Source: a phage
Sequence record: PZ452581.1
DNA: 64,000 nt
Reading direction: 5' to 3' (one strand)
The position numbers and the translations under genes were made by a program. The notes under the pieces are model-generated. The model worked only from the letters and a program-made list of their open reading frames with translations, was not told the origin of the DNA and made no database searches. Position 1 is the stretch's first letter, and each line of letters begins with the position of its first letter. Below are positions 2,290 through 61,193 of the stretch, in pieces.

Positions 2290-2359
2290 TTTTATTCTCC
2301 GAGATGTTTAATTGCGGTACAAGTATATAATATCATATCCTGTACCAAAGTAAACTATT

Positions 2360-2728
2360 TTATGCAACTTTAATCCAATTATCTAAATTTAATTCACCTT
2401 TGGCTTTCATTTTTTCAATCAAGAGGTCAGCGGTAATACGACCATTTTGATACCACGTAACATCTTCAGAGTAACCAGTTTCTTTATCTTCATAAGTCTC
2501 GCAGCGAATTTTACCAAGAATCAAAGTTTTTAATTCGTATGTATCTCCAGTAAAAAAGTTAGTTAACATTATTTTCCAAGAGAAATCATCAGAAGGACCT
2601 TCAGGAGTCATACAATCTACGAATTCAAATTGTTCTTTGTATAAGTGCCACTGAAGTTCTTTAGTTTCGATAGCTTTATAGCCGTCGTGATCTTTACCTT
2701 TGATGTATGAGTTAAGATTGATTTTCAT
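2360..2728 (-). CDS. hypothetical early protein
   Basis: 122-aa ORF; early-promoter-like motif at 2780-2785 upstream. Confidence 0.55.
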   Translation of the reverse strand: MKINLNSYIKGKDHDGYKAIETKELQWHLYKEQFEFVDCMTPEGPSDDFSWKIMLTNFFTGDTYELKTLILGKIRCETYEDKETGYSEDVTWYQNGRITADLLIEKMKAKGELNLDNWIKVA

Positions 2729-2805
2729 TTTATTCTCCTTTGTTTGTGTAAGATAATACTATCACAAAGGAACCATACTGTAAACAACTTTGTGCAATCT
2801 TTGGA

Positions 2806-2833
2806 AAATAAAAAAGGACTCCCGAAGGAGTCC
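2806..2833 (-). terminator. intrinsic terminator (GGACTCC-UUCG-GGAGTCC stem-loop plus U-run)
   Basis: Perfect 7-bp stem with tetraloop at 2816-2833, A-run on plus strand 2806-2815 (U-run on minus transcript), 5 nt after stop of basic-protein ORF. Confidence 0.7.
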
Positions 2834-2838
2834 TCAAC

Positions 2839-3015
2839 TTATGCTTTCTGCTTACCAAAACGAGAAGCATCATCTCGAAGAACCGCACGTGCTCGGCGCA
2901 TGATCTTCTCAACAGTTTGATTGATACGAGAGTTCGACCCACGCTTGTAACCAGCGCGTTTAGAATCACCAACTTTCTTTTCAACTGCTTTCTTTGCTTT
3001 AGCTTGTTTTGCCAT
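2839..3015 (-). CDS. small lysine/arginine-rich basic protein (about 58 aa; alternative start at 3057)
   Basis: Track ORF 2839-3057; internal ATG at 3015 gives MAKQAKAKKAVEKK...; followed by intrinsic terminator. Confidence 0.5.
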   Translation of the reverse strand: MAKQAKAKKAVEKKVGDSKRAGYKRGSNSRINQTVEKIMRRARAVLRDDASRFGKQKA

Positions 3016-3134
3016 TATAAATTCTCTTTTAAATGAAAATGCAGGACTTATTGGCATTGCCTGCGAAAGCCCTCAAGGGGTACTTAGGTTTTGAATATTT
3101 ACCGACAGGATAACCATAAACCTCGTCAACATAA

Positions 3135-3383
3135 TTACTTCAGTGTTACCACAAAGTGACGAACTGCTTTTCGTGCAGCAGAAGCCAGAGGCTTAGCATA
3201 TTTAAGTTCATCTTTTTCCTGAAGCTCAGCAGCTAGTGCAGTTTGAGCAGGATTCAGATGTTTGAAATAACGCAGGATTTCAAGAGCTTCGGCTTCAACA
3301 TCAATAGATGCGCCATAGTTTTCGTGACCATTATTCCATGCGTTTCGTTGCAGTTCAAGAGCGTGTTGTAATTGTTTAATCAT
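3135..3383 (-). CDS. rIII: rIII lysis-inhibition accessory protein
   Basis: 82 aa, position between 30.x block and gene 31 as in T4. Confidence 0.75.
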   Translation of the reverse strand: MIKQLQHALELQRNAWNNGHENYGASIDVEAEALEILRYFKHLNPAQTALAAELQEKDELKYAKPLASAARKAVRHFVVTLK

Positions 3384-3522
3384 TTAAAAATTCTCGTTAG
3401 AGATTAAAACTCGGTAGTCACGTTCTTCTGAATTTCATCTTCTTTCGACAGATCTCTCAGTTGTAGACTACCACATAGAATTGTTCGGTTAACTTATTAT
3501 TCCGACACCCAATTCATATTAT

Positions 3523-3530
3523 TATTTATA
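3523..3530 (-). promoter_or_regulatory. late promoter-like TATAAATA
   Basis: Exact TATAAATA on minus strand immediately downstream of gene 31 stop. Confidence 0.4.
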
Positions 3531-3866
3531 TCACTTATAAAGACACGGAATAGCTTTATAGTGACAGGTAACAAATTTTTGTTTAATTTCTTTTGGCTTC
3601 TTAAGACCCAGAGCTACAAAAGGATGTGGAACGTTTCGAATTTGACCAACTGGAAGAGAAGTCAAATCACCAACTTCACAGAAACCTTCAGGAACATCAG
3701 GACCAACAGAGTGAACTACACACAGTTCAGGAACTTCACCTTGGACACGTTTACCAATAATAAGTCCTGATTCTGTAACTTCTTCATCACCGGCTTGTGC
3801 AGGTTCAGAAACTAAAATAACATATTCACCGACAGCACGAATTGGTAGCTGTTGTACTTCAGACAT
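3531..3866 (-). CDS. 31: gp31 co-chaperonin (GroES analogue for capsid folding)
   Basis: 111 aa; sequence [30 protein letters not shown]... recognised as T4 gp31. Confidence 0.9.
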
Positions 3867-3922
3867 CGTTTTTCCTTTTTGTTAACAGATGAATTAATAA
3901 TAACAAATAATTCTTAAAGCAT

Positions 3923-5384: not shown

Positions 5385-5617
5385 AGTACGCCATACACCC
5401 TTTGTGCTTCAACTAATCCATCAAAATCCAGTTTAAGATGTGTTATTTGATCACCATCACCTGGATTCACAATTACTAATACTGAACGAGGAGTTTCGGT
5501 AATAACACGAACCGATGTTTCAGGAAATCGTTCAGAAACCTTATTTACCAATTCCTGAGCAAATAGTTTAACTTTTTCTTGGAATTCTTTAACAGTAATT
5601 GGTTTTTCACTTAGCAT
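5381..5617 (-). CDS. hypothetical protein (cd.x block)
   Basis: 78-aa ORF, overlaps neighbours. Confidence 0.55.
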   Translation of the reverse strand: MLSEKPITVKEFQEKVKLFAQELVNKVSERFPETSVRVITETPRSVLVIVNPGDGDQITHLKLDFDGLVEAQRVYGVL

Positions 5618-6138
5618 GTTGATCCCAGCTCCTTACTTTCAACGTTTTTAACTAATTTGACAGAAACTAATTCGGCATCTTGGGTAATCATTACCGGGCC
5701 TTCTTCATACTCTTCAAGATATTCTAGAGCTTTCTTTTTAGCTTCTTCCTTCGTATCAGTTTGAGCATAGATATAGAACATACAACCAGTAATACCTACT
5801 ACTTTCCACTTAATTTCTTTATCAGTTTTAATTTCAAATTTACTGATAGAGTCATCTTTTTGAACTTCTTCGAAAAAATAATATTCTGACATATAAGTAA
5901 TTGAAAATAACGGGCTATCTTTATAAGATTCGCCCATTACATCAACAGCTTTATACCAGCAGTCATCAATTTCACGTTTAATGCTAATAACATTTTTCGC
6001 AGAATCTATTTTTACTTTAAATGAATTTTCCCCAATAAACTTGGCAATTCGTTTATTAGCCCCGCAAGTTTCATTAAAAATATCTTTATATCCAGCTTTA
6101 AAGCGATAAACCTTATCTTCTTCAAACCATTTGCTCAT
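5611..6138 (-). CDS. hypothetical protein (cd.x block)
   Basis: 175-aa ORF; early-promoter motif at 6163-6198 upstream. Confidence 0.6.
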   Translation of the reverse strand: MSKWFEEDKVYRFKAGYKDIFNETCGANKRIAKFIGENSFKVKIDSAKNVISIKREIDDCWYKAVDVMGESYKDSPLFSITYMSEYYFFEEVQKDDSISKFEIKTDKEIKWKVVGITGCMFYIYAQTDTKEEAKKKALEYLEEYEEGPVMITQDAELVSVKLVKNVESKELGSTC

Positions 6139-6200
6139 TTCAATTTCCTCATTTGTTTTGGTAGAGCTATAATATCACAACTCTACCGTAAAGTAAACTG

Positions 6201-8618: not shown

Positions 8619-8968
8619 TTAGAAAGGTCCTGGATGTCTTCTGCGAACTTGTTGAAGGAGTTGTTGATTTGTTTTTCAACCAATCCTGGCTTATGAGCCA
8701 CCACATCCGCCTTCTTTGCGTCTTTGCGCAGTTTTTCATTTTCACGCTCAATAGCAGCAATTGCCTCACGATTTTTATTATTCATCGCATCAATATAATT
8801 ATACTGAATTCGCAAATTATTTAATGCTAAAGCGTTTTCATTGGCCGTTTTTGTAATTTCTACAACAGACGTTTCTAATCTTTCAATTTTATTTTTTAAA
8901 ATTAAAGAAGTTCCGCCTAATGCAATTACAATTAATAGCAAGCCTGCTGTCGTATTACTTAATTGCAT
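8615..8968 (-). CDS. putative membrane-anchored coiled-coil protein
   Basis: 117 aa; N-terminal hydrophobic segment AGLLLIVIALGGTSLIL. Confidence 0.5.
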   Translation of the reverse strand: MQLSNTTAGLLLIVIALGGTSLILKNKIERLETSVVEITKTANENALALNNLRIQYNYIDAMNNKNREAIAAIERENEKLRKDAKKADVVAHKPGLVEKQINNSFNKFAEDIQDLSK

Positions 8969-9465
8969 AAAGTTTTAATAACCTCTATAATATCGTCTTG
9001 AGAAAGACCGTTAATTAAAATATGATGTTCAGCCGGAGATTTAGAAATTTTAAAGCATGCCTCAACATCTTCTGCCATATCCGATGCACTACGATTTGGA
9101 TTACTAATTCCAAGACGATGCTTTCCAGTCAAAGGATTAACGATGATATAGCATTTGCAGCTATTGATATGAACATTAGGCTGAGTCTGATTAATGAATA
9201 CTTCGCACTCATACTTAGCGAGTTGATTTTCTAAAAAGACTTTCATCTCCTCAACCGCATCAGGAAGCATATCACGGGCTTGCTCAAGACGACGATTTCG
9301 ATATTCTTTAATGGTCGTTTTCCGCTTGACTTGCTTAGCTAAATCTTTCTTAAGATCGGTGATATATCCAACTCGACGATTTCCTTTGAATACAGAAATC
9401 CCATCTGTAGTATCACCGTATGCTTCAACGACCATTTCAGTAGTAATAAGCTGCAAATCCATCAT
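8959..9465 (-). CDS. alc: Alc-like transcription terminator of cytosine-containing DNA (assignment by size and synteny)
   Basis: 168 aa between pseT block and rnlA, as T4 alc (167 aa); early promoter motif upstream at 9487-9523. Confidence 0.6.
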   Translation of the reverse strand: MMDLQLITTEMVVEAYGDTTDGISVFKGNRRVGYITDLKKDLAKQVKRKTTIKEYRNRRLEQARDMLPDAVEEMKVFLENQLAKYECEVFINQTQPNVHINSCKCYIIVNPLTGKHRLGISNPNRSASDMAEDVEACFKISKSPAEHHILINGLSQDDIIEVIKTLCN

Positions 9466-9526
9466 AAAGTCCTCATGTTATGTCAGTAAGACTACTGTAA
9501 CACAACACGAGGGACTTGTAAACAGC

Positions 9527-17646: not shown

Positions 17647-17889
17647 TCAAACAGACTTTTTCACAGTTTTCCAATCAGCTTTAAACTGATCAACATCAGA
17701 ATGGTAAATCCAGAATCCTGCGCTTTCTCCATCTTCATAAAGAGGACATCCATCGCATTCATCTTCCCATCCCATATCACGCAAAAGACGTTCAGCTTTT
17801 TCAACAAGTTCAGAATCTTTACCGATGATATTAAAATACCATTTACCTCTAACTTCTGAATCTTTGATGCTTTGGCGTTGTAATCTCAT
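17647..17889 (-). CDS. hypothetical protein (frd.3-like)
   Basis: 80-aa ORF; early promoter motif at 17905-17947 upstream. Confidence 0.55.
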   Translation of the reverse strand: MRLQRQSIKDSEVRGKWYFNIIGKDSELVEKAERLLRDMGWEDECDGCPLYEDGESAGFWIYHSDVDQFKADWKTVKKSV

Positions 17890-17904: not shown

Positions 17905-17947
17905 AGTTGATAGGGTAATAGTATCACACTACTACCCTGTTGTAAAC
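17905..17947 (-). promoter_or_regulatory. early promoter-like element (GTTTAC, spacer, TG-extended -10)
   Basis: Minus strand reads GTTTACAACAGGGTAGTAGTGTGATACTATTACC. Confidence 0.5.
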
Positions 17948-18643: not shown

Positions 18644-18895
18644 TTATTGTTCAATCAGTCCCATGTAGAATTCTGCGTCTTCAGAATCCATGCCATCACA
18701 ATATTCATTAGCCATAAAGCGGGTGAGGTCTTCAAGAGGACCTTCAATGACAATAGAAAAATTGCAATAATTGGGATCATCATGAATACTTGTGATACTA
18801 AGTTCAGGATAACGATTACGAATAATCTCTTCAATATATTCAAAATCAACGATGTCAATATCAACTTTAGCCATATTATTTTCCTCTTTAATCAT
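18644..18895 (-). CDS. hypothetical acidic protein
   Basis: 83-aa ORF; promoter motif upstream at 18914-18947. Confidence 0.55.
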
Positions 18896-18913
18896 CAGCA
18901 GTATTGCCGATAG

Positions 18914-18947
18914 TTGTATAGTACCATAAAGCTTTATGCTTGTAAAC
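18914..18947 (-). promoter_or_regulatory. early promoter-like element
   Basis: Minus strand GTTTACAAGCATAAAGCTTTATGGTACTATACAACTATC; part of a 75-bp module repeated at 36065-36145. Confidence 0.55.
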
Positions 18948-18970: not shown

Positions 18971-18997
18971 ATAAAAAAGGGGACCTCTAGGGTCCCC
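18971..18997 (-). terminator. intrinsic terminator downstream of gene 32
   Basis: GGGGACC-loop-GGTCCCC hairpin at 18979-18997 followed on minus transcript by U-run (plus A-run 18973-18978). Confidence 0.7.
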
Positions 18998-19928: not shown

Positions 19929-20000
19929 TTTTATTTCCTTTTTAATTTAATTAACAGTTGGTGCTATGACGATGTATGACCTCATAGCTGGTCAGTGAGA
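19929..20000 (-). promoter_or_regulatory. gene 32 translational operator leader (pseudoknot region plus unstructured UUAAAUUAAA tract)
   Basis: Minus strand reads ...GCTATGAGGTCATACATCGTCATAGCACCAACTGTTAATTAAATTAAAAAGGAAATAAAAATG, matching the T4 gene 32 autoregulatory leader as I recall it. Confidence 0.6.
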
Positions 20001-20012
20001 TAATTATAATCT

Positions 20013-20020
20013 ATTTATAA
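20013..20020 (-). promoter_or_regulatory. late promoter TATAAATA upstream of gene 32
   Basis: Exact TATAAATA on minus strand. Confidence 0.5.
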
Positions 20021-20027
20021 TAAGCAA

Positions 20028-21271: not shown

Positions 21272-22189
21272 TCAAAATTCATTAATGCTATTAGTTAATT
21301 TAGAAAGACCCGCTTTTACAAAATATGAATAAATTTTGCCACGCGGTGGTAATTTATATGAATTATAGTAATTCACAATGTTTGAAGCAATATTATCAGG
21401 AATATAATCAAAATCAATTAGAACTAAATTTTCTTTATAACGATTATATTCAGATTCTGTGAGAAGCACCTTAGCTTGCTCACGGTCATTAGCAATAGCT
21501 TCAACGATTGAAGTTTTCATTGAAGGAGTTCGTTCACCTTCAACTTTGGTAAACCAAAAGTCAGATCGTACTTTAACTGAAGCAACGTTATCCTTTTTAT
21601 CGCCTTTAAGGATTTTAGTCATACAGTCAATTTCAGCAGAACCGCTTTTAATTTTAACCCATTTCTTATGCATCGGTGACCATTGCTTAACATTTGGATA
21701 TTTGTGAAGTTGAGTAAAGTCACCATCCGATGAAATGATTAAAATCTTGTGTCCTTCTAAAGAGAACTTTTTAACAAGAACAGCAATGTGGTCATCTGCT
21801 TCATACTTATCAATATCCATAACAATGTATGGCATATAAGCTTTCAATTCATCTATAACTTTGTGGCTGGATTCAAAATAACCTTCCCAGTCCCAAGTCG
21901 ATTCTTCTCGTGCTTTTCCACGGTTTTTCTTATAATAATACGCGAAATCACGACGCCAGTATCCAGATTTCGCGTTATCAATACACAGTACAATTTTAGT
22001 GTATCCAAGCGTTTTTGCTTTTTTGACATTAAACTTAATTGAGTTCAATATCAAATGACGAACCATTGATAAATTAATTTTTTCTTTATCTGGGAAGTTT
22101 ACTAAAGCAGTTGAAAGCGCAATTTGACTAAAGTCAATTAAGCAGATTCCTTCTTTGTAATCTTCATCCAGCATCATTTCTAAATCCAT
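21272..22189 (-). CDS. rnh: RNase H (5'-3' exonuclease, FEN family)
   Basis: Internal ATG at 22189 gives 305 aa starting MDLEMMLDEDYKEG; track start at 22204 is a TTG. Confidence 0.9.
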   Translation of the reverse strand: MDLEMMLDEDYKEGICLIDFSQIALSTALVNFPDKEKINLSMVRHLILNSIKFNVKKAKTLGYTKIVLCIDNAKSGYWRRDFAYYYKKNRGKAREESTWDWEGYFESSHKVIDELKAYMPYIVMDIDKYEADDHIAVLVKKFSLEGHKILIISSDGDFTQLHKYPNVKQWSPMHKKWVKIKSGSAEIDCMTKILKGDKKDNVASVKVRSDFWFTKVEGERTPSMKTSIVEAIANDREQAKVLLTESEYNRYKENLVLIDFDYIPDNIASNIVNYYNSYKLPPRGKIYSYFVKAGLSKLTNSINEF

Positions 22190-22213
22190 ATGAACCTCGT
22201 TCAATTAGTGAGA

Positions 22214-22248
22214 TTTCTATTATATACCATCCGAATCTTAAAGTAAAC
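22214..22248 (-). promoter_or_regulatory. early promoter for rnh (GTTTAC ... TGGTATATAAT)
   Basis: Minus strand GTTTACTTTAAGATTCGGATGGTATATAATAG. Confidence 0.6.
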
Positions 22249-40341: not shown

Positions 40342-40397
40342 TAAACTTTCCTTTTACGTCGGAATCACTGATATTCATACAATAAATCATAGTTTCC

Positions 40398-40424: not shown

Positions 40425-40427
40425 ATT

Positions 40428-40622: not shown

Positions 40623-40654
40623 AATTTTCCTTAATATGATAAGGGCCGAAGCCC

Positions 40655-43792: not shown

Positions 43793-43996
43793 TTAATTCA
43801 TATTACGCTTAATAACTTCAGCAACTTCTAGTAGTTCATCTTTAGTTGCAGTGTCGGATTGAATTTTATCTCTAATATCTTTAAAGCGGTTTTTAAATTC
43901 TTCGGCTTCTCCCATATCGAAAAAGCGTTGAATGATTCTATATTCTCGATGAACTGCTTTATCAAAAAGTTCTAAATTTACTCTATATGATTTCAT
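43793..43996 (-). CDS. hypothetical protein (rIIA.1-like)
   Basis: 67-aa ORF; promoter GTTTAC ... TGGTATAAT upstream at 44019-44050. Confidence 0.6.
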
Positions 43997-44018
43997 TTCA
44001 ATATCCTCATTTGCCCAA

Positions 44019-44050
44019 TTAATTATACCACATCCTTGTGGTAAAGTAAA
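44019..44050 (-). promoter_or_regulatory. early promoter (GTTTAC and TGGTATAAT)
   Basis: Minus strand GTTTACTTTACCACAAGGATGTGGTATAATTAAT. Confidence 0.6.
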
Positions 44051-45871
44051 CTACTGGCTCATCCATTCTTTACGAAGGTCAGCATTATCTCCCATGAGCA
44101 TTTCAAAAAGCTCTTTCCAGTTCTCAGGAAGTTTAACAACATCATATACTGGATTTTGAATCATCTCACGATATTCAGATTTTTCCAAAGAGCCAAGTCC
44201 TTTAATATAACGGATGCTATGTTTAGGTAGAGCATCTTTGGCACTCTCATATTCAGCGACTGTATAAAACCATTCTTGTTTTTTACCGACCTGAGCGATG
44301 ATTACAGGAGTTTTGACAAAGCGAATTCGTCCTTGCTCAAACAGTTCTGGCCAATTACTAAAAAATCCAAGAAGAGAAGGATAAATGCTTCCTAGACCAT
44401 CATGGTCAGCATCAGTCATAATAGCAATATTATGATAATTCAAGTTTTCAGCCTTTTCACCAAGAACTAATCCAGTGATTGCGCAAATGTCAAACAGTTC
44501 TTTGTTTTTAAGCATATCGGCATATGACATACCCCAGCTATTAAGAACTTTACCACGTAATGGATAACCGCCATGAAGTTCTTTATCACGAACATCAATA
44601 AGATATCCGATAGCAGAATCACCCTCAGTCAAGAAAAGAGTAGTGTCAGCGTCTTTACCGCAAAGATTCGCTTTAATGTGTTTATGAACCTTAGCTTTAG
44701 AAGCCTTTTTAGCTGCTTTAGTTTCTGCTGCTTTTTCTGCCGCCAATTTACGAGCCAAGGCAGCTTCAATAATTGGCATTAAAATTGCTTCATTGTTTAA
44801 AATAGCGCGTGAAATCTTTTTAGCATCAAGCTGAATATGACTACGAATTTCACCAAATGGAGAAGTCAAACGCTCTTTAGTCTGAGAATCAAATCGCATG
44901 TTTTTCATATCACGAACGAACATAACGATAGTCAAACATTCTTTAACGCGTGCTTTAGTTACATCAATTTTGAACTTACGTTTGATTTGTGGAATAAGGT
45001 CTTCACAAATATCATCCATAACACAGTCAATGTGATGGCCACCATTCTTAGTGTGAATGTTATTCACATAAGTTAATTGGCGAAATCCATCCGGTGAACG
45101 ACCAACCGCAATAGAACAATTTTCTTGTTCTTGAACAATAGCATGTTCATCATACTGTCGTGCATATTTCTTAAAATTGCCCTGAACCTTTTTACCATTA
45201 AAGGTAAATTGAATATCAGGATAAACAACAGCAAGTGTCTGGAGACGATCTAGTGTAATGTCAAGATAAACTTGGGACAGCTCATTAGTTTCAAATGACA
45301 TAAAATCTGGAATGAAAGTAACACGAGTTCCTTTCCATTTTCCAGGAATAGTTTCCCAGGATTTATTTTCCATGCCATTTGAACAACGAACTACAATATT
45401 ATTTTGACCATCGCCAGTTTCACCGACAAACATCACAGAAAAAATGTTAGTTAAACTAGAACCAACACCGTTCATACCGCCAGTGACGCGTTCTTTATCA
45501 TCACCGAAGTTACCACCTGCTTTTGGAATAGTCCAAGCAGCAACAGGACCAGGAATTTCTTCACCAGTAGGTGTTTTAACCATCGCTTGTGGAATACCGC
45601 GACCGTTATCTTCAACTGTTACTTGATTGTTTTTAATAGTAACATTAATTTTATTTGCGAATTTAAACTTAGTACGAATACCTTCATCTACTGAGTTATC
45701 GATAATTTCATCAATAAGCTTAACAAGACCAGGTACATACTGAACACTTTCCCATTTACCAAACAGAAAGCGCTCATGCATTTCATTAGCAGAAGAACCA
45801 ATGTACATGCCGCTACGCTTTTTGATATGTTCAATATCGCTCAGAATTTTAATTTCATTCTTAATCATCAC
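44051..45871 (-). CDS. 39: DNA topoisomerase II large subunit, unsplit (GyrB-like ATPase)
   Basis: 606-aa continuous ORF; GHKL motifs (VEDNGRGIP, GGxxGxG); no separate gene 60. Confidence 0.9.
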   Translation of the reverse strand: MMIKNEIKILSDIEHIKKRSGMYIGSSANEMHERFLFGKWESVQYVPGLVKLIDEIIDNSVDEGIRTKFKFANKINVTIKNNQVTVEDNGRGIPQAMVKTPTGEEIPGPVAAWTIPKAGGNFGDDKERVTGGMNGVGSSLTNIFSVMFVGETGDGQNNIVVRCSNGMENKSWETIPGKWKGTRVTFIPDFMSFETNELSQVYLDITLDRLQTLAVVYPDIQFTFNGKKVQGNFKKYARQYDEHAIVQEQENCSIAVGRSPDGFRQLTYVNNIHTKNGGHHIDCVMDDICEDLIPQIKRKFKIDVTKARVKECLTIVMFVRDMKNMRFDSQTKERLTSPFGEIRSHIQLDAKKISRAILNNEAILMPIIEAALARKLAAEKAAETKAAKKASKAKVHKHIKANLCGKDADTTLFLTEGDSAIGYLIDVRDKELHGGYPLRGKVLNSWGMSYADMLKNKELFDICAITGLVLGEKAENLNYHNIAIMTDADHDGLGSIYPSLLGFFSNWPELFEQGRIRFVKTPVIIAQVGKKQEWFYTVAEYESAKDALPKHSIRYIKGLGSLEKSEYREMIQNPVYDVVKLPENWKELFEMLMGDNADLRKEWMSQ

Positions 45872-45937
45872 TTATCCTCGTTTGGTTTCGGGAATATTAT
45901 ACTCCGGTAATCATAAAGCTAAAGGCCCGAAGGCCTT

Positions 45938-46210
45938 TTATTTAAAACGGATAGTCGAATCCTTGAAGAATAGACCAGAACATACTGTTCCTTCTACTTT
46001 CTGCCCGGTAGGTCCAATAGCACGAAATCCAGTATGTTGGAAATCATTTTCAGAGCAACCGAACCAATTATATCCAGTGATTTCAATATTAGTAAAACCG
46101 CTTGAAGACAAAATTTTGGTTGCATTATCAGCATCAGTACATCCTACTAAAGATACTGCTAATACTAATGCTGCGATAGAACGATTAACATATTTCATAA
46201 TTTCACTCAA
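45938..46210 (-). CDS. putative lipoprotein
   Basis: 90 aa; signal peptide with lipobox SLVGCT. Confidence 0.55.
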   Translation of the reverse strand: MSEIMKYVNRSIAALVLAVSLVGCTDADNATKILSSSGFTNIEITGYNWFGCSENDFQHTGFRAIGPTGQKVEGTVCSGLFFKDSTIRFK

Positions 46211-47403: not shown

Positions 47404-47685
47404 TTAATTGAACAGTGGAGCGATGCGTTTCAGAAGAGTAGCAGCACCTTTAGCGAATTTTACATCATGAAAAACAGTTTCTTCTTCTGTAACAACTCGA
47501 ACTTTAATATTTTCGCAATCCCAATTTTTGCGAACAATCTTCAAAAGCTGCAGTAAATCTTTACATTCAGCAATATCGATAACACATCCACGAGAATCTT
47601 CCATTATCGCACGATAACCGTAAGCCATACCATAATCATTAAAAGATTGCTCGATGATAATTAAGTTTTCCATTTTATTCTCCAA
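47404..47685 (-). CDS. hypothetical protein
   Basis: 93-aa ORF. Confidence 0.5.
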   Translation of the reverse strand: MENKMENLIIIEQSFNDYGMAYGYRAIMEDSRGCVIDIAECKDLLQLLKIVRKNWDCENIKVRVVTEEETVFHDVKFAKGAATLLKRIAPLFN

Positions 47686-47770
47686 GTTGTTTTCTGTATC
47701 AGTAGTTGATATTGATATAGTACCATAATCAACTACTGATGTATATAGTTTTATGAAAAAATTTTAAACT

Positions 47771-48262
47771 TTATGCATAGCGAGCTTTGCTGTAGTGTTT
47801 AATCCAACTTTCAGGAATGACTTTGTATGTTCCTAAAAATACCGCGTTGTATAACTTAACGCCATCTTCTACCCATTGATCAGTAATGTATGCACACATA
47901 GCGCGAGTACGGTTAACAACACCTTCCTCACCTTCAGTAAATTCAAACTCATAAGGAGCAACGAACTTGATAGCTTGACCGAGTTTCCACTTAAAGTCTA
48001 CACCTACATGCGAAGTATCAATCGTTTCAATTCCTTTAGCGGGAACAGCTTTCAAAAACGCAGGCTCAAGAAATTTCCATCGAACATAACCAAACTGAGG
48101 TTTAGACATTCCATCTTTAGGAATGATACGCACTTTTACTTCAGAATCTTCATCTTTAACACCATGTTTAAGCTGAATGCTTACGACTTCAACCAATTTT
48201 CCTGCTGCCTTAGAACGGGATTTATCAGATACACGAGCAATTTCACCGATATTAATATTCAT
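47771..48262 (-). CDS. MotB-like protein (assignment by size and synteny)
   Basis: 163 aa; C-terminal segment paralogous to the next ORF. Confidence 0.55.
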   Translation of the reverse strand: MNINIGEIARVSDKSRSKAAGKLVEVVSIQLKHGVKDEDSEVKVRIIPKDGMSKPQFGYVRWKFLEPAFLKAVPAKGIETIDTSHVGVDFKWKLGQAIKFVAPYEFEFTEGEEGVVNRTRAMCAYITDQWVEDGVKLYNAVFLGTYKVIPESWIKHYSKARYA

Positions 48263-48299: not shown

Positions 48300-48336
48300 C
48301 AGGACCATTATACTCTGGTCCCAAGAGTTTGTAAAC
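48300..48336 (-). promoter_or_regulatory. early promoter (GTTTAC ... TATAAT)
   Basis: Minus strand GTTTACAAACTCTTGGGACCAGAGTATAATGG. Confidence 0.55.
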
Positions 48337-48783: not shown

Positions 48784-49287
48784 TTAATTTAAAGTAATAA
48801 AGCCTTTTAATTCGGCATGTGATTTGCGGAACATTACTTGGTGCCCGCCAATGATAACTTGATCATCTGGAACTTCGTATACAGCGAGATAAAATCCTTT
48901 AGAAGATAATTCTTCACGCTCTTCTCGTGTGAACCATCTCATCATATCATATTCGCTAGCGAAAGCAAAATGATAAAGAGCTATAAACCATCCTGGAATA
49001 TAGTGATCTACGCCTACATATTCTTCTTTCTCAAAATTAGTATTAATTGCTATATTAGCATTTTTAACTAATAATTTGTCTTCGTGTGGAAGAGGAATTC
49101 TTTTATTATCATTACTATGATGCATAAAATTAGGTCTGTCATAACCTACGTGTAATAACCACTCTTCGCTCCATGAATCTATTATACTCCTGTATGGCGT
49201 TATTTGAACACAAAGATCTCGACGTATTGTTATAGCATCTTCATAATTAAGAATACTAAACGATGATTCAACACGATAAATTTTCAT
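48784..49287 (-). CDS. hypothetical protein
   Basis: Internal ATG at 49287 with GAGGATAAT Shine-Dalgarno, promoter motif 49308-49344; track ORF extends to 49326. Confidence 0.55.
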   Translation of the reverse strand: MKIYRVESSFSILNYEDAITIRRDLCVQITPYRSIIDSWSEEWLLHVGYDRPNFMHHSNDNKRIPLPHEDKLLVKNANIAINTNFEKEEYVGVDHYIPGWFIALYHFAFASEYDMMRWFTREEREELSSKGFYLAVYEVPDDQVIIGGHQVMFRKSHAELKGFITLN

Positions 49288-49307: not shown

Positions 49308-49344
49308 TGGTGTTATAGTACCACAACTAACCGAGGAAGTAAAC
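49308..49344 (-). promoter_or_regulatory. early promoter-like element
   Basis: Minus strand GTTTACTTCCTCGGTTAGTTGTGGTACTATAACACC. Confidence 0.55.
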
Positions 49345-52396: not shown

Positions 52397-53143
52397 TTAT
52401 CCTCGGATAAGTTTAAAAATTGAACAATTTAGCGGGTATCCTCTTTTCAGTTTAAGTTTATCAATAAAAGACAAGTTTTGATACCGCTCTACACCTTGAA
52501 TAATTTTATCACACATGTCATATTGCATTTCTGCTTCTGACAACTTTTTCACAATTTTCCAATCCGAGCCTTTAAGAAGAACGTTCAGTTTAACAACTTC
52601 AGCGCCTTCTGCTATGCGAGAACCATCAATACGAGCTTTAAGTGCTATAATCCTTAGCTTAATGTCAGAGGTCTGTTTTGATTTAGAAAGCTGAGAAATG
52701 TGTTCAATTCGATTTTCACGCTTTTTCTGTATAGCTTTAATTTGATTATAAGTCTTTTTGATTTTAGCCCATTTCTTTTCATCTAAATTTAGTTTATGAA
52801 CTTTTTTCGCAGATGAACGACCAATTCGCAAAGCAAATAAATCACGCTTTTCAATCAACTCTTCTAAAGTATAATCAGAACGAAATGTATTATACTTTTT
52901 CTTTACTGCAATAACGTTCCCTTTAATGTATCCAATGTTATTATCAAAACGTTCTAATGATAATTTCTCTCCTTCAATACGATTATCAAAAGGTTCTCCC
53001 GAGTAAGCGCAAACTTTCTGATCTAAAATGTTCTTAATGTAATTGAAGTCTAAGTTAAAATCTTTAGAACGTCTTTTAGCAGATGCCTGAGTGTGCTCTA
53101 AACGACGTTTAATTTTACGAATTTGATTATTAGACAGTTTCAT
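52397..53143 (-). CDS. srd: Srd-like lysine-rich protein (assignment by size and synteny)
   Basis: 248 aa, highly basic; promoter motif 53172-53208 upstream. Confidence 0.55.
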   Translation of the reverse strand: MKLSNNQIRKIKRRLEHTQASAKRRSKDFNLDFNYIKNILDQKVCAYSGEPFDNRIEGEKLSLERFDNNIGYIKGNVIAVKKKYNTFRSDYTLEELIEKRDLFALRIGRSSAKKVHKLNLDEKKWAKIKKTYNQIKAIQKKRENRIEHISQLSKSKQTSDIKLRIIALKARIDGSRIAEGAEVVKLNVLLKGSDWKIVKKLSEAEMQYDMCDKIIQGVERYQNLSFIDKLKLKRGYPLNCSIFKLIRG

Positions 53144-53171: not shown

Positions 53172-53208
53172 CTACTATACTATAACATTTTTACCTTGGC
53201 TTGTAAAC
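53172..53208 (-). promoter_or_regulatory. early promoter-like element
   Basis: Minus strand GTTTACAAGCCAAGGTAAAAATGTTATAGTATAGTAG. Confidence 0.5.
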
Positions 53209-53264
53209 AATTTTATGAAAAATGCTTCAAAAATTTCATGGTATAATGAATCTAAGTCCTTCCA

Positions 53265-53867
53265 TTATAGATTAAATCCTTCAAAATCAAGAGTATAGAT
53301 AGTGTATGTTGAATACTTTTTATACTCATATCTATCTGCAATTCTAAATACACTTCCAGCTGGTATCATTACTTCTTGTTCATCTGAAACTAATTCCATA
53401 TTACGATAACGATGGCTATCCGGAAACTTAAAGTTTGGATTGTATTCTTTACAGCGTAGAGCTTTTATAGCATACTCCTGGAAATTGAATACCATAGGAG
53501 CTTTGAATTCAAAAATAACCTGTGTGTTATACTCTAAACCGGAAGCAAAATGTAGAGCTATATTTTTATCATATGAAGCTGATACGACTTTATCAAATGT
53601 AATAATATCAATTCCTTGATTTAACACCTGCTTAGTCTCGACTGGAACACCTCTCCAAAGAGGTTTATCGTTTGGAACCAAACGAGATTTGATTATTTCA
53701 TTTAACCAAGTATGGTCATCTGGCTTATTGGTAATACAATGAATTAAAAGTTCAATTTCAGATAAATTAAACCCTTCAGAAAGTAATTCTTCACGAATAG
53801 AAGCACGCACCGATGCATCCATTGATTTTATTTTAAAATCTTTTAGTTGCATTACTGAGTATTTCAT
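53265..53867 (-). CDS. modA: ADP-ribosyltransferase ModA-like
   Basis: 200 aa; paralogous to adjacent ORF; size and synteny match T4 modA. Confidence 0.65.
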   Translation of the reverse strand: MKYSVMQLKDFKIKSMDASVRASIREELLSEGFNLSEIELLIHCITNKPDDHTWLNEIIKSRLVPNDKPLWRGVPVETKQVLNQGIDIITFDKVVSASYDKNIALHFASGLEYNTQVIFEFKAPMVFNFQEYAIKALRCKEYNPNFKFPDSHRYRNMELVSDEQEVMIPAGSVFRIADRYEYKKYSTYTIYTLDFEGFNL

Positions 53868-54487
53868 TCAACTACCTCAATATCATAAACTTTAAATGTT
53901 CCAAATGAATCGTGTAATTTTTCTTTTGAAATAGAAGTTATTCTATACTTTCCAATTGGAATCATCCATTCTTGTTCATGCACAATCATCATTAAGTTAT
54001 CAGTACGCTCTGAATCTAACCCATCAGTATCTTCATATGTATACTTAAACTCAGTATTAGGAGAAGAAAGTATAATATCGCTGATATGGTCAGAGTAATT
54101 AAAAGCTTTATCAGTTTTTAAACGAAGTATTGTTTCAGTGAAATATTCAGCATAAGAAAAAGAACACGCTGTATGCAAACTAGTAGTAAATGAATCTACC
54201 CTGTTCGTTGAAAACACTTCTCCAACTTGTAAATCTTTAATAAGTTCTTTTGTCGATTTTGATATACCACGATATAATTGATAAGGTGATTTAGTTAAAT
54301 GCTTTTTAACGATTTTATTCAACTGCCGATGAAGAGCTTCATTCTTTTTTGCTTCCATACATTGCCAAAGAACAGACTGCTCAAAATCAGTAAATTTTTC
54401 ACAGACCTTTTTATACATATCATATTGAAAATCAACGCTTTCAGCTTTTATAGATAACTGTTCAACATCTGCAGGATTAATAATCAT
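53864..54487 (-). CDS. modB: ADP-ribosyltransferase ModB-like
   Basis: 207 aa; ATGA overlap with modA; size and synteny match T4 modB. Confidence 0.65.
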   Translation of the reverse strand: MIINPADVEQLSIKAESVDFQYDMYKKVCEKFTDFEQSVLWQCMEAKKNEALHRQLNKIVKKHLTKSPYQLYRGISKSTKELIKDLQVGEVFSTNRVDSFTTSLHTACSFSYAEYFTETILRLKTDKAFNYSDHISDIILSSPNTEFKYTYEDTDGLDSERTDNLMMIVHEQEWMIPIGKYRITSISKEKLHDSFGTFKVYDIEVVE

Positions 54488-54504
54488 GATAGCCTCCGTA
54501 TACT

Positions 54505-54543
54505 TCAGAAGCTATCATATCATCGTTAGAAAGGAAAGTAAAC
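54505..54543 (-). promoter_or_regulatory. early promoter-like element
   Basis: GTTTAC and downstream TATGATAGC on minus strand. Confidence 0.45.
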
Positions 54544-56045: not shown

Positions 56046-56383
56046 TCACAAGATGTAGATGAACAACTAGAATCACAAGAACTTTCACATGAATCACCCG
56101 TCCACACATGAACAGGAACATTAGTATCATATGAATCAGAACTAGACTGTGTATTCTGCGTATTAGATGATGTAGTAGGTGTTGACCAGCGCCAAGGATT
56201 TTTATAATATTCCTGGGCTTCTTCATAAGTCATAGTAACTGCTTCTACTGTTCCATCTCCCATATAAACATATTCAACTACAGTTAAAGGGAGGTAGTCG
56301 TTTGAAATAGGAACTACACCTTCTCCGGGAGTTGTAGAGAAAAAATCCGTAAAGAAACTTTTAAACCAATTAAAGATAAACAT
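56042..56383 (-). CDS. hypothetical protein with hydrophobic N-terminus and Cys/Ser-rich C-terminal tail
   Basis: 113 aa; C-terminal [16 protein letters not shown]. Confidence 0.55.
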
Positions 56384-56589
56384 TACAAAAAGCCTCTCTT
56401 GAATTCGACTTGCTTTTCGCCATAATCATATCGAATCTCTGCATTAAATTCGACAGAACCATCTGCGTACATCATAAATGAATGCACAACAACTTCTGTA
56501 GACCATGGCTGCAGTTCATATTTCTTCATTACATGCCGTGAAATGATAATATCTAAATCTTCATTTGGTTTAATCCAGCGATTTAACAT
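56383..56589 (-). CDS. hypothetical protein
   Basis: 68 aa. Confidence 0.5.
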   Translation of the reverse strand: MLNRWIKPNEDLDIIISRHVMKKYELQPWSTEVVVHSFMMYADGSVEFNAEIRYDYGEKQVEFKRGFL

Positions 56590-56649
56590 AGTGCTCTCCT
56601 CTATAAGATAATTCTATTATACCATACTCATTTTGATATGTAAACTGCA

Positions 56650-56680
56650 AAAACGAAAAAAGGAACCCCGAAGGATTCCT
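56650..56680 (-). terminator. intrinsic terminator downstream of soc
   Basis: Hairpin AGGAACC-CCGAA-GGAUUCCU followed by U-run on minus transcript. Confidence 0.6.
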
Positions 56681-56686
56681 TAAATT

Positions 56687-56960: not shown

Positions 56961-57170
56961 TTAAATTACATGATTATTTATAATAAATTCTCGCGGAACG
57001 TTAAAATATCCGATTTTAGTTAATATAACAACATCACCATTAATAATTACCGGAGAATAATCTTCTGAAGCATTAAATTTCCAATGGGCTCTAATATTAT
57101 ATCCATCAGAACCAAATGCTCGACTAGCCGGTCTCCCGGCTTTTTGCCATGCATAAAAATCAAATTTCAT
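56961..57170 (-). CDS. hypothetical protein (soc.1-like)
   Basis: 69 aa. Confidence 0.5.
   Translation of the reverse strand: MKFDFYAWQKAGRPASRAFGSDGYNIRAHWKFNASEDYSPVIINGDVVILTKIGYFNVPREFIINNHVI
56975..56982 (-). promoter_or_regulatory. late promoter TATAAATA for soc
   Basis: Exact TATAAATA on minus strand about 30 nt upstream of soc ATG. Confidence 0.6.
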
Positions 57171-57370
57171 TTTGAATGCTCTATAATTAATTTTAAGGCT
57201 TCTTCACGCACCAACTTGTCTAATGGTATATGCCCAGTTTTAATTGTGTAAGCTTTGTGGAGCTGATTAGATAAGAGCTCGTATGTGAGCTCTTTGTCAT
57301 AATCTTTAAATAGCTGGTCAATACGTTTCTTGCGGGCTTTCTTAAGCTGGCGTTTATTTAAACGAGCCAT
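57167..57370 (-). CDS. hypothetical basic protein (soc.2-like)
   Basis: 67 aa. Confidence 0.5.
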   Translation of the reverse strand: MARLNKRQLKKARKKRIDQLFKDYDKELTYELLSNQLHKAYTIKTGHIPLDKLVREEALKLIIEHSK

Positions 57371-57888
57371 TAATAGCCTCTGTCTTGACGAGCGAAGTTT
57401 TCAGCATTTTTCAGATAATAAAGTTTAAATATTTCTTCAGCTGACATTCCAAGAGCAATAAATTTATTCATGAAAAAGTGAAATTGGTCAATCAGTTCAA
57501 ATTTAATTTCAAGCTGATCTTCAGGAGATAAGTCTTGAATTTTCTTGGATTGCATTTCAGAATAACGTTTCTTCCAAGGTTTCCATACAGCAGAAGCTTC
57601 TTTTTCACCATTACTCATACCACCAAGAGAAGTATATAGCTCGCGAGTTTCGTCTGCGATATAATCGTCTTGGTTTCGCAGCCAAGCAAGAACTTCTCCT
57701 GCAGTTTCAAGTGAATCAGGATGACGATTTGTTTCTGGTTTATCATTAGCCAAACGAATCTGTAAATGCCGCTGCATGTCAAGCATAACCTGCAATGGGT
57801 CAATACTGTGCATAATATACTCAGCATATGCACGATTTGCTTTATCAACACCTTCGATCAAATGAGCACATTCATTAAAGTGAGCCAT
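57370..57888 (-). CDS. 56: dCTPase/dUTPase (MazG-like dCTP pyrophosphatase)
   Basis: Internal ATG at 57888 with AAAGGAAA Shine-Dalgarno gives 172 aa starting MAHFNECAHLIEG; track ORF extends to 57981. Confidence 0.9.
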   Translation of the reverse strand: MAHFNECAHLIEGVDKANRAYAEYIMHSIDPLQVMLDMQRHLQIRLANDKPETNRHPDSLETAGEVLAWLRNQDDYIADETRELYTSLGGMSNGEKEASAVWKPWKKRYSEMQSKKIQDLSPEDQLEIKFELIDQFHFFMNKFIALGMSAEEIFKLYYLKNAENFARQDRGY

Positions 57889-57959
57889 TATTTTTCCTTT
57901 CAATTCATGGGTTAGTAGATTAATTATACAATAAATATATAAAGCAATAAGGAGGACAT

Positions 57960-59187: not shown

Positions 59188-59352
59188 TTACTCTTCTTTT
59201 TCTTTAGATTCCTCTTTTTTCTTTTTAGGAATCTGTTCAGGGCCTTTATTTACTACAGCGCCTGACGTTGTTCCAGTAGAGATATTTTCAGGATTACCAC
59301 CTGAATCTCCAGCGACCATATCTTCTTTGATAAATTCTTTATATGTTTTCAT
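59188..59352 (-). CDS. small hydrophilic Lys/Glu-rich protein (54 aa)
   Basis: ATG overlaps stop of upstream ORF (TAATATG); below track cutoff. Confidence 0.35.
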   Translation of the reverse strand: MKTYKEFIKEDMVAGDSGGNPENISTGTTSGAVVNKGPEQIPKKKKEESKEKEE

Positions 59353-59398
59353 ATTAACCTCTATTCATAAAAGCATTAAAAATTTGGTCATCAATAGA
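59350..59398 (-). repeat. 49-bp junction-cassette direct repeat, copy 1
   Basis: CATATTAACCTCTATTCATAAAAGCATTAAAAATTTGGTCATCAATAGA; second copy at 59708-59756 with 1 mismatch. Confidence 0.8.
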
Positions 59399-59710
59399 TG
59401 GAATAGCAACCTTTTCGGCATCATTTAGCAAATCATTAATTTCATCAGATAGCATAACACATGTGCCTTTATTTCCTGTAATTGTTACTGCACAATTACG
59501 AACGTTTTCTTTATCAAAATTTAGGTTAATATTTTCGTAGTGAAAATCCTTTAATGCCGAATATATCTTTAAAATGAAATTGTCTTTTACTACAATAAAC
59601 CCAACTTCACTATTAAAACGTGGTTCATGGAAACTATAATAAACCTTTTCATCTATAAAATCGTATGAAATTTTTTCCATTTTTAAATATGAAAATTCAG
59701 AACTATACAT
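59354..59710 (-). CDS. hypothetical protein (61.x family, shared C-terminal tail)
   Basis: 118 aa ending SIDDQIFNAFMNRG. Confidence 0.55.
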   Translation of the reverse strand: MYSSEFSYLKMEKISYDFIDEKVYYSFHEPRFNSEVGFIVVKDNFILKIYSALKDFHYENINLNFDKENVRNCAVTITGNKGTCVMLSDEINDLLNDAEKVAIPSIDDQIFNAFMNRG

Positions 59711-59756
59711 ATTAACCTTTATTCATAAAAGCATTAAAAATTTGGTCATCAATAGA
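59708..59756 (-). repeat. 49-bp junction-cassette direct repeat, copy 2
   Basis: See copy 1. Confidence 0.8.
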
Positions 59757-60338
59757 AACATTTACTTTAGACTGTTTTTCTGATGGTAATTCATATCCAC
59801 ATATTACAATTTTGTAATCAATATCAAAATACACAGAAGCAATATGATTAATGATGTTTTCAGTAAAGTCTAAATCAACGTCAATATCTTTTTGACCACA
59901 GCCCAAAGGATAAATAATGCGAGTAATTCGATTATCTTTAACAAATATTCCACCGACATACTCTGTGCTGCGTTTAAAGTCTACACGCCGACGAAATGAA
60001 AAATATTCAGGCTCTCTATGAGCTCGGCTCATAGGACACAACGAGTAACTAGAATAAGAGATGTCAAATCCTACGCCTTCGATATGAGCCATAGTGTCAT
60101 GATTAAACCAATTATAATCGTACGCCAAATCCATTAGATTATAATATGTAAAAGACACCGGATTAACATCATTAGTCACAAGCATGTAATTAGCAACTGC
60201 TATAATTTCATTGTTTTTAACGAATACAAACCGTGATTGATGCGAATGACCTGGACCCGCGTTTTCACGATTAATGATATAACACTGGGCACTTTTATAT
60301 TTGTATGTATCTTTGCACTTGTGCATTTGATAGAGCAT
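59712..60338 (-). CDS. hypothetical protein (61.x family, two-module paralogue)
   Basis: 208 aa ending SIDDQIFNAFMNKG; internal FVKDN/IVVKDN modules. Confidence 0.55.
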   Translation of the reverse strand: MLYQMHKCKDTYKYKSAQCYIINRENAGPGHSHQSRFVFVKNNEIIAVANYMLVTNDVNPVSFTYYNLMDLAYDYNWFNHDTMAHIEGVGFDISYSSYSLCPMSRAHREPEYFSFRRRVDFKRSTEYVGGIFVKDNRITRIIYPLGCGQKDIDVDLDFTENIINHIASVYFDIDYKIVICGYELPSEKQSKVNVSIDDQIFNAFMNKG

Positions 60339-60631
60339 TATTCACCTACCACTTCAGCGATGATATTTTTGTTATTAAAGTTTTTATCGCAATACAGAAC
60401 ATAATTATACTGCATTACACCACCAGACTTAAGCTGTTTTTGCACTTCAGCTTTCATTTCAGGACGATCGCGCTCAACAATATTCATAATATCCGCTTCA
60501 ATTTGAGTTTCAACCTCAGTCTGATTAGCAGTCATAGACCATTCGCACAAATCTTTATCATATCCTGCCATAGCAGGCTGAGCAGCACAAGAAGCCAAAG
60601 TAAAAATTGTAGCAAAAATAAATTTTTTCAT
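60338..60631 (-). CDS. sp: periplasmic Spackle-like protein (assignment by size and signal peptide)
   Basis: 97 aa with N-terminal signal peptide ...ASCAAQPAMA. Confidence 0.55.
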   Translation of the reverse strand: MKKFIFATIFTLASCAAQPAMAGYDKDLCEWSMTANQTEVETQIEADIMNIVERDRPEMKAEVQKQLKSGGVMQYNYVLYCDKNFNNKNIIAEVVGE

Positions 60632-60649
60632 GATAATCTCCTCAGTAGT

Positions 60650-60689
60650 TTATGTTTATATAGTATCTCAATTTCCAACAAAAGTAAAC
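60650..60689 (-). promoter_or_regulatory. early promoter-like element
   Basis: GTTTAC at 60684-60689 (minus) with TACTATATAAAC downstream. Confidence 0.45.
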
Positions 60690-60691
60690 AG

Positions 60692-60991
60692 CTATTTTAA
60701 AACTTCTGCGTAATCACATGTTACAAACTGTTTCTCTAGCTTAACGATTTTACGAAAATACCTTTTATACTGACGAATCTGCCTCTTCGTAGGACGTACA
60801 GCAAACTTAATAAATTCCACTCGACCAAATGGAGGACTTTCTTCTGCTGGAATATCTAACACCAATTCCCACGTATCTGCAATAAGTGCTTTGAATTGAG
60901 TATTTTTCCTGACGTTATACGGAGTAGGTTTAAATAAAACAATATGCATATTATCCTCGGCAATCCACTTCGCACACTTTCTTGTCATCAA
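60692..60991 (-). CDS. hypothetical protein (61.4-like)
   Basis: 99 aa. Confidence 0.55.
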   Translation of the reverse strand: MMTRKCAKWIAEDNMHIVLFKPTPYNVRKNTQFKALIADTWELVLDIPAEESPPFGRVEFIKFAVRPTKRQIRQYKRYFRKIVKLEKQFVTCDYAEVLK

Positions 60992-61133
60992 TGAAAGCTT
61001 TAACTAATGCTTTATTAACTTCAGCATATTGAGTAGTAGCCCATTGAACGTCATCTTTCATCATTGTGATTTCTTTAGTAAACATGCTTTCATTCTTAAA
61101 CCACCCCATAAAAACTACCTTTACCAATTCCAT
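60951..61133 (-). CDS. dmd: Dmd antitoxin-like (inhibitor of host RnlA/LsoA)
   Basis: 60 aa MELVKVVFMGWFKNESMF..., recognised as T4 Dmd (61.5). Confidence 0.7.
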   Translation of the reverse strand: MELVKVVFMGWFKNESMFTKEITMMKDDVQWATTQYAEVNKALVKAFIDDKKVCEVDCRG

Positions 61134-61157
61134 AACAATCTCCTCATTTAACCAACA

Positions 61158-61193
61158 AGACTACTATACCATAGTCTTGTCAGTTTGTAAACT
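61158..61193 (-). promoter_or_regulatory. early promoter-like element
   Basis: Minus strand GTTTACAAACTGACAAGACTATGGTATAGTAGTC. Confidence 0.55.

Follow-up and report, generated by a model that had tools for sequence, protein, structure and literature searches.

The genome of bacteriophage T4 has about 40 published early promoters (Pe). The members of this class have been described as an ordered series of A/T-rich upstream (UP) elements, a -35 element, a TGn motif and a -10 element, with GTTTAC at positions -36 to -31 (PMC2988021, PMC1524935). For example, primer extension has revealed the RNA of Pe148.6 as soon as 1 min into infection (PMC6024815), and in the dmd-tifA region the promoter that drives dmd-tifA has been placed upstream of dmd and another one downstream of tifA/61.4 (PMC9391042). 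Some T4 early promoters are stimulated once Alt ADP-ribosylates one alpha subunit, and shut-off follows after 2-3 min (PMC2988021, PMC3014915). A further arrangement has been reported for the T4 genes e, soc, 49 and I-TevI, in which the promoter lies inside a hairpin and the ribosome site is free only in the transcripts that start from it (PMC3014915). Here, a stretch of phage DNA of 64,000 nucleotides (nt; one strand of record PZ452581.1, hereafter the window) has been analyzed, and 20 minus-strand sites in it are almost certainly early promoters of a T4-like phage. The element is already known: it is the textbook T4 early promoter, and its individual copies are orthologous to those of T4.

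Each site is named after the plus-strand coordinate of the G of its minus-strand GTTTAC. A first-pass annotation of the window had listed 18 early-promoter-like elements, and GTTTAC is indeed found on the minus strand at all 18 places, with the coordinates exact for 16 of them and off by 1 nt for the other two (44045 instead of 44046-44051, and 61188 instead of 61187-61192). The set has 20 members, as sites 56645 and 47746 had not been listed; and the sites are dispersed, with spacings from 430 to 11,396 nt, so the term array, used in that annotation, does not apply in the tandem sense. The hexamer alone is hardly enriched (44 occurrences on both strands vs 33.5 expected). The composite motif GTTTAC-N16-18-TAnnnT, on the other hand, occurs 20 times on the minus strand of the window and never on the plus strand, against a mean of 1.1 and a maximum of 3 in dinucleotide-preserving shuffles, which were used for all the expected counts of composite motifs; when TGn is also demanded before the -10 hexamer the figures are 16 and 0, with 0.07 expected. 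A scan with a weight matrix built from the sites, proposed earlier as a check, returns, with a cutoff of 14 bits taken here as the limit for strong matches, 20 distinct minus-strand sites and not one on the plus strand; the minus-strand matches amount to 23 overlapping registers, and random sequence gives 0.2 per 64 kb. The unlisted site 47746 scores 31-37 bits and is conserved in T4 and four relatives. A few other matches have been rejected. Those at 8386, 17071, 22467, 46097 and 39053 are weak by the weight matrix, are internal to genes, have neither TG nor UP features and are not followed by a gene start; and a composite match at 22771-22776, antisense within tail-fibre gene 34, has no TG, no A/T-rich upstream sequence and no gene after it, and is probably due to chance.

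The internal geometry of the sites is nearly invariant. The -35 element GTTTAC (-36 to -31, with T at -33) is exact in 19 of the 20 sites, 47746 reading ATATAC. The first-pass annotation had placed the -10 element 15-19 nt after GTTTAC; such an element does follow at all the sites, and the real gap is tighter, 18 nt in 19 of 20 cases and 17 nt only at 2355. With TTTAC(a/t) as the -35 hexamer, this spacing equals the sigma-70 optimum of 17 bp. As for the -10 element itself, the earlier wording (TGGTA[C/T]TATA or TATAAT) describes eight of the 18 listed sites, plus one unlisted site, and fails for the other ten, where TATTAT, TAGTAT, TACAGT, TACTAT after TGA or AGA, TATAGT or TATGAT is found. 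A TAnnnT hexamer with the proper spacing is common to all 18 listed sites and to the full set of 20, and the extended -10 dinucleotide TG is present at -15/-14 in 17 of them. The 25 nt upstream of the sites have an A+T content of 75%, compared with 65% both in the window and at 13 further GTTTAC sites of the minus strand without the motif, and a run of at least four A residues is found upstream of 13 of the 20 sites vs 4 of the 13 control ones.

The assignment to the T4 early class, already made in the first-pass annotation, has been borne out by direct comparison with T4. The G+C content of the window is about 35%, and megablast searches of phage genomes with queries of 20-25 kb match more than 200 Tequatrovirus records, with a query coverage of 80% or more and an identity of 94-97%; judged from these matches, the source of the window is a Tequatrovirus, a close relative of T4 with an identity to it of about 95-97%. 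Positions 15-41593 are colinear with T4 127,578-168,903 and positions 41594-63580 with T4 1-23,000, the identity to T4 being 92-97% across most colinear blocks. Within this framework, all 20 sites have a T4 ortholog bearing the same motif. When the transcription start is computed as the T4 G minus 36, two T4 promoter positions are reproduced exactly: 133295, ortholog of site 6198, which a note of the T4 GenBank record calls 'early promoter Pe133295', and 150,727, ortholog of 22248, where the rnh/dsbA map published for Pe148.6 has its left end (PMC6024815). In addition, the orthologs of 39251 and 39764 are annotated as promoters (-35 GTTTACA, -10 TACTAT) in T4 record X75802, and the 37-nt core of 39764 is identical to the promoter annotated there. 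The two promoters of the dmd-tifA region correspond to 61192 (upstream of dmd) and 60689 (downstream of tifA) (PMC9391042). Finally, the T4 site at 8.2 kb, ortholog of 49344, is probably the P8.1 of the literature, to go by the name. Promoter features were also looked for in T4 records AF158101.6, NC_000866 and HM137666, which carry none, and a literature search for genome-wide mapping of T4 transcription starts yielded nothing usable.

The pattern of conservation points in the same direction. Twelve promoters were compared in six Tequatrovirus genomes (the window, T4 and four others). Variable columns number 0 of 72 in the -35 hexamer, 1 of 48 in the TGn region and 3 of 72 in the -10 hexamer, all three at its two middle positions, vs 19 of 168 in the spacer, 14 of 84 between -6 and +1, and 79 of 300 upstream, a figure inflated by small indels. 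This footprint matches the one predicted for selection acting on the contacts of sigma-70. Moreover, the composite motif keeps to the early-gene strand at every match in T4, in four Tequatrovirus relatives and in a Mosigvirus. When IMG/VR was scanned for further orthologs of the dmd promoter, one contig came up.

The gene context is equally regular. With the transcription start placed 7 nt past the -10 hexamer, all 20 sites lie 16-38 nt upstream of an ATG, in accordance with the placement before early genes proposed in the first-pass annotation, and 17 of the 20 leaders contain a GAGG or GGAG ribosome-binding motif. Genes of the window run leftward, on the minus strand, except for a late block on the plus strand (22294-33310, with t and the tail-fibre genes 34-38), where none of the 20 sites is located. 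In T4, the genes served are early in omics data, the RNA of motA and asiA being detected at 1 min and the motA protein also at 1 min (PMC9697503). The location within the end of the preceding gene, noted before for several sites, applies mainly to the A/T-rich upstream part of the promoter, and only 33644 lies wholly within an open reading frame (ORF), that of the asiA.1 homolog. The preceding gene's stop codon overlaps the G of GTTTAC, or is at most 6 nt from it, in nine sites, and the A/T-rich upstream part is therefore coding there.

The individual promoters and the genes that they serve, all on the minus strand and named by colinearity with the T4 annotation, can be followed from left to right; intervals run from the predicted start to the G of GTTTAC, and T4 coordinates refer to the equivalent G. 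Promoter 2355 (2320-2355, with the -35 element at 2350-2355, a 17-nt gap, -10 TATTAT and predicted start 2320; T4 129918) precedes a 30.7 homolog (1924-2289), and 2785 (2749-2785; -10 TAGTAT; T4 130310) precedes a gene of the 30.8 family (2360-2728; PF06019). Next come 6198 (6162-6198; TATTAT; T4 133331), ahead of an ORF not found in T4 (5611-6138; phrog_3710), and 9523 (9487-9523; TACAGT, in T4 TATAGT; T4 136336), ahead of the alc homolog (8959-9465). The frd region has two, 17947 (17911-17947; TACTAT; T4 146143) for the frd.1 homolog (17647-17889) and 18947 (18911-18947; TACTAT; T4 146875) for the frd.3 homolog (18644-18895). Promoter 22248 (22212-22248; TATAAT; T4 150763) serves rnh (21272-22189) and lies in the divergent gap next to late gene 34. 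The regulatory genes asiA (33311-33583) and motA (35403-36038) follow 33644 (33608-33644; TATTAT; within the asiA.1 ORF; T4 161211) and 36109 (36073-36109; TACTAT; T4 163673), respectively. Promoter 39251 (39215-39251; TACTAT; T4 166807) belongs to a 37-amino-acid (aa) ORF in the ndd.3-ndd.5 cluster, and 39764 (39728-39764; TACTAT; T4 167086) to an 87-aa ORF that T4 does not have (39437-39700, with its start ATG at 39700; phrog_2390).

In the second colinear block, 44051 (44015-44051; TATAAT; T4 2458) serves rIIA.1 (43793-43996), and the G of its GTTTAC is the final base of the topoisomerase gene stop codon. The unlisted 47746 (47710-47746; -35 ATATAC, TGg, -10 TACTAT; T4 6630) is followed by an 89-aa ORF (47404-47673; phrog_3720), 48336 (48300-48336; TATAAT; T4 7215) by motB (47771-48262), and 49344 (49308-49344; TACTAT; T4 8218) by motB.2 (48784-49287). 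Promoters 53208 (53172-53208; TATAGT; T4 11851) and 54543 (54507-54543; TATGAT; T4 13186) serve srd (52397-53143) and modB (53864-54487), and the other unlisted member, 56645 (56609-56645; GTTTAC..TGgTATAAT; T4 15288), serves mrh.2 (56383-56589). The last two are 60689 (60653-60689; TACTAT; T4 20109), before sp/spackle (60338-60631), and 61192 (61156-61192; TATAGT; T4 20612), before dmd (60951-61133); here the G of GTTTAC is the final base of the gene 41 stop codon. With 20 promoters ahead of early genes, the leftward early regions are therefore split into short, partly overlapping transcription units. The ORFs directly downstream of 6198, 39764 and 47746, which are not in T4, lie at colinearity breaks and have no Pfam match, and their PHROG families have no assigned function. 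The practical value of the set is a map of transcription units for annotating the phage, including which small ORFs of unassigned function are immediate-early.

The physiological model is that of T4. Unmodified Escherichia coli RNA polymerase would read each of these very strong sigma-70 promoters upon DNA entry. The -35 element, G-TTTAC(a/t), would be contacted by sigma region 4, the TG at -15/-14 by region 3, the TAnnnT hexamer, optimally spaced at 17 bp, by region 2, and the A/T-rich DNA upstream by the alpha C-terminal domains. Transcription would begin about 7 nt past the -10 hexamer, 16-38 nt before the start codon of the early gene, and the strength of the promoters would allow them to out-compete those of the host. 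By analogy with T4 work, activity in the first minute and independence from phage proteins may be expected in this phage, as may the stimulation of some promoters by Alt ADP-ribosylation and a shut-off after 2-3 min. Several points weigh against this reading. TG is missing at 22248, 48336 and 60689, and GTTTAC at 47746; only seven of the 20 sites have a T4 counterpart that is named or annotated as a promoter; and activity in this phage is presumed from T4. In the same sense, a scan with the generic sigma-70 consensus stays at the shuffle level (76 vs 78, 81 vs 82 and 57 vs 51); as such a scan is at chance in A/T-rich DNA, the signal resides in the T4-specific form of the motif.

Many of these early promoters coincide with RNA secondary structure. 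In 10 of the 20 a hairpin is centred on the -10 hexamer with z below -2.5 and a free energy (dG) of -12 to -24 kcal/mol; its 5' arm is in the -35/-10 spacer and its 3' arm runs from about -6 to +15. RNA-type hairpins around the -10 element have been located on the minus strand at 2320-2355, 2749-2785, 6162-6198, 9487-9523, 17911-17947 and 39215-39251, and at 47710-47746, 48300-48336, 49308-49344, 54485-54519 and 61156-61192. Among them, the values are dG -16.7 and z -4.9 at 2355, -20.2 and -8.5 at 47746, -23.7 and -5.3 at 49344, and -18.9 and -5.2 at 61192. The hairpin at 2785 takes in the ribosome-binding site, and that at 9523 (dG -28.6, z -5.8) covers it as well. The clearest predicted case of masking is modB, at 54543 (dG -22.3, z -4.9), where the -10 TATGAT pairs with AUCAUG at the start codon and the ribosome site is included in the structure. 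A similar hairpin exists in the Mosigvirus ortholog; the alignment contains one compensatory change and several one-sided ones, and the core is invariant, so it is uninformative on that core. All ten -10-centred hairpins fold more stably as sense-strand RNA than as antisense RNA, because the stems hold one to three G.U pairs. Of 11 distinct stem substitutions in T4 and four relatives, nine keep the pair, mostly via G.U, and one more was seen separately; about half would keep pairs by chance, and the figure is thus only suggestive. Mosigvirus promoters have -10-centred hairpins with other stem sequences.

The consequences for translation were modelled by folding the leader up to the start codon in RNA starting either at the promoter or 60 nt upstream. 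The predicted unpaired probability of the ribosome site rises by more than 0.3 with the own-promoter start in 7 of 19 promoters, compared with 2 of the 54 control genes; with this cut-off, set post hoc, a Fisher test gives P=0.0008, and a rank test is not significant (P=0.15). It is conceivable, if somewhat doubtful, that these seven promoters (2785/30.8, 6198, 9523/alc, 39251, 47746, 49344/motB.2 and 54543/modB) lie inside a hairpin that gates translation. In such a model, the 5' arm would be upstream of the start and the 3' arm over the ribosome-binding site or AUG of the downstream gene; read-through transcripts would be silent for that gene, and those from its own promoter would be translated. 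Shut-off of the early promoters would then mean that the proteins, often toxic, are no longer made despite middle-mode transcription across the gene. If true, the translation of toxic early proteins such as Alc and ModB would be tied to their own promoters.

Most of the -10-centred hairpins have no U-run, and so they are not obvious terminators. The look of an intrinsic terminator is restricted to four hairpins, located 15-32 nt upstream of four promoters other than the ten with -10-centred hairpins, and all on the minus strand. They are GAGGACTCC-TTCG-GGAGTCCTT followed by a T-run (2814-2835, 29 nt upstream of 2785), GGGGACC-CTAGA-GGTCCCC followed by TTTTTT (18979-18997, 32 nt upstream of 18947), AGGGAGAGC-CTCG-GCTCTCCCT followed by TTTTT (36141-36162, 32 nt upstream of 36109) and AAGGAATCC-TTCG-GGGTTCCTT followed by TTTT (56660-56681, 15 nt upstream of 56645). 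Other G+C-rich hairpins with a UUCG loop (GGGGC-TTCG-GCCCC) are found on the minus strand at gene ends, at 1884-1923, 40393-40432, 40626-40665 and 45907-45946. Very stable CUUCGG hairpins have long been known in T4 intercistronic regions, and this UUCG-loop family resembles them.

A second role, additional to that of promoter and not an alternative to it, has also been considered: the sites may behave as cassettes of the PeSL type, that is, dispersed repeats of 40-75 nt at which recombination swaps, inserts or deletes small early genes. The PeSL concept, in which the stem-loop serves as terminator or attenuator of transcription from upstream and recombination between cassettes gives gene gain or loss and mini-circles, has been published (PMC2839356), and its extension to this phage is offered tentatively, as something that probably does not hold for the set but has several observations in its favour. 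The four largest direct-repeat families of the window are these promoters, 18947 belonging to a 75-nt family (D1), and 6 of the 42 colinearity breaks with T4 fall in promoter zones vs 1.5 expected (P=0.004), with the non-T4 ORFs just mentioned directly downstream of 6198, 39764 and 47746. The haplotypes of the relatives switch exactly at the -35 hexamer in 48336, or at about +8 to +10 in 36109 and 39764. Another example is phage PD112, in which the sp promoter position (L007, 25703-25823) is occupied by another early promoter, itself equipped with a -10-centred hairpin (GCTGATAGAGTT...AATTCTATCAGC); on its sequence, this position has had the whole promoter-hairpin cassette exchanged. A smaller patch is seen after the -10 of 39251 (39215-39228, minus strand), where the window reads ACAACT and T4 and four relatives read TACCCT. 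These four clustered changes make the segment identical to the paralogous promoters 18947, 36109 and 39764, which suggests gene conversion between promoter copies. Against such a role, intergenic breakpoints survive preferentially under any mechanism, the comparison set is small, recombination products have not been observed, and the stems are not of the GGGG...CCCC type of RB49. Both the hairpin and the recombination features are leads, not results; if the latter were confirmed, the promoters would be gene-shuffling junctions in Tequatrovirus, as proposed for RB49.

Since both T4 classes have a -10 hexamer, often preceded by TGn (PMC2988021), the sites might instead be middle promoters dependent on MotA and AsiA, and the RNA of Pe148.6 is unexpectedly lower in a motA mutant (PMC6024815). 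This is nevertheless very improbable. The MotA box (TGCTTtA, centred near -30) is found in none of the 20 sites, where a -35 element takes its place; the search covered (a/t)(a/t)(a/t)TGCTTtA at 11-13 nt before the -10 hexamer of every site, and 18947 has a GCTT that is misplaced for a MotA box and stands alongside a full -35 element. Furthermore, the predicted T4 starts match none of the listed T4 middle-promoter starts in the region, and motifs with a MotA box sit elsewhere in the window. One of these is a near-perfect middle-promoter motif on the plus strand at 53220-53247 (AAATGCTTCA, 12 nt, TGgTATAAT), adjacent to the srd early promoter, divergent from it and antisense into modA. The box (TGCTTTA) and TATAAT are kept in T4 and four Tequatrovirus relatives, and also in a Mosigvirus with a different, 13-nt spacer sequence. 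The published list of middle promoters of T4 does not include this motif, and it is not followed by any ORF with an ATG start. Another MotA-box promoter motif, at 24531 on the minus strand, is antisense inside tail-fibre gene 34; judging by its position, it would be orthologous to T4 P34i, the oriG primer promoter. As for the possibility that the 20 sites are functionless sigma-70-like matches in A/T-rich DNA, it is practically nil: the count of GTTTAC alone (44 vs 33.5), the generic sigma-70 matches at the shuffle level and the composite match at 22771-22776, which does look fortuitous, would fit it, but the composite motif (20:0 by strand vs 1.1 expected) refutes it statistically, the spacing is fixed, the distance to start codons is constant, and -35, TG and -10 are conserved while spacer and flanks vary.

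Apart from the promoters, the window differs from T4 in several respects. The colinearity breaks coincide with T4 introns, homing-endonuclease genes or alternative small ORFs. The topoisomerase gene (44051-45871) is a single fused gene (39 + 60) without bypass element or mobA, T4 being different; the td and nrdB introns, segG, mobE, segF and dam of T4 are absent; and the dCTPase gene has only 73% identity to its T4 counterpart. The places concerned, besides the topoisomerase gene, are 11647, 15505/15506, 19991-20027 and 56982-57949. In another region, a 49-nt direct repeat, 98% identical between its copies at 59350-59398 and 59708-59756, flanks an ORF of 118 aa (59354-59710) that matches the C-terminal half of Anti-DarT factor A (PF23813) and adjoins a full-length 61.2/AdfA homolog (59712-60338). 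In the relatives examined the 118-aa gene replaces 61.2, and T4 has 61.2 only; both alleles thus seem to be present in this phage, one after the other.

Several known systems can be set beside the 20 promoters. Strong sigma-70 promoters read by E. coli polymerase, such as T7 PA1 and lambda PL, share with them the UP, -35, TGn and -10 contacts and the 17-bp spacing (PMC2988021); they differ in the -35 element, which here is (G)TTTAC, with T and not G at -33, and in the additional flanking positions that are conserved in the phage. T4 middle promoters resemble them in the -10 hexamer, the frequent TGn, the strand and the regions occupied, whereas they have a MotA box at -30 and no -35 element, and occupy separate sites in the window. 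The hairpins of T4 e, soc, 49 and I-TevI have the same geometry as that predicted for seven early promoters here; theirs are late promoters, with delayed expression, whereas the early ones of the window would confine translation to the early period. The PeSL of RB49 and phi1 also combine a strong early promoter with a stem-loop between or over the -35/-10 boxes, and they are tied to small ORFs of unassigned function and to indel differences between close relatives (PMC2839356); in contrast, the stems here are A/U-rich with G.U pairs, centred on the -10 element and mostly without U-run, and not G4...C4 tracts. Finally, the T4 early promoter itself has in common with the sites GTTTAC at -36 to -31, TGn, TAnnnT, an A/T-rich upstream region and a position immediately ahead of early genes, on the early strand. 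The site that T4 has at 3883, within its mobA/gene 60 insertion, is absent here, and three promoters of the window serve ORFs that T4 does not have; otherwise nothing of substance separates the two sets, and most cores of the 20 positional orthologs are identical or 1-2 nt apart.

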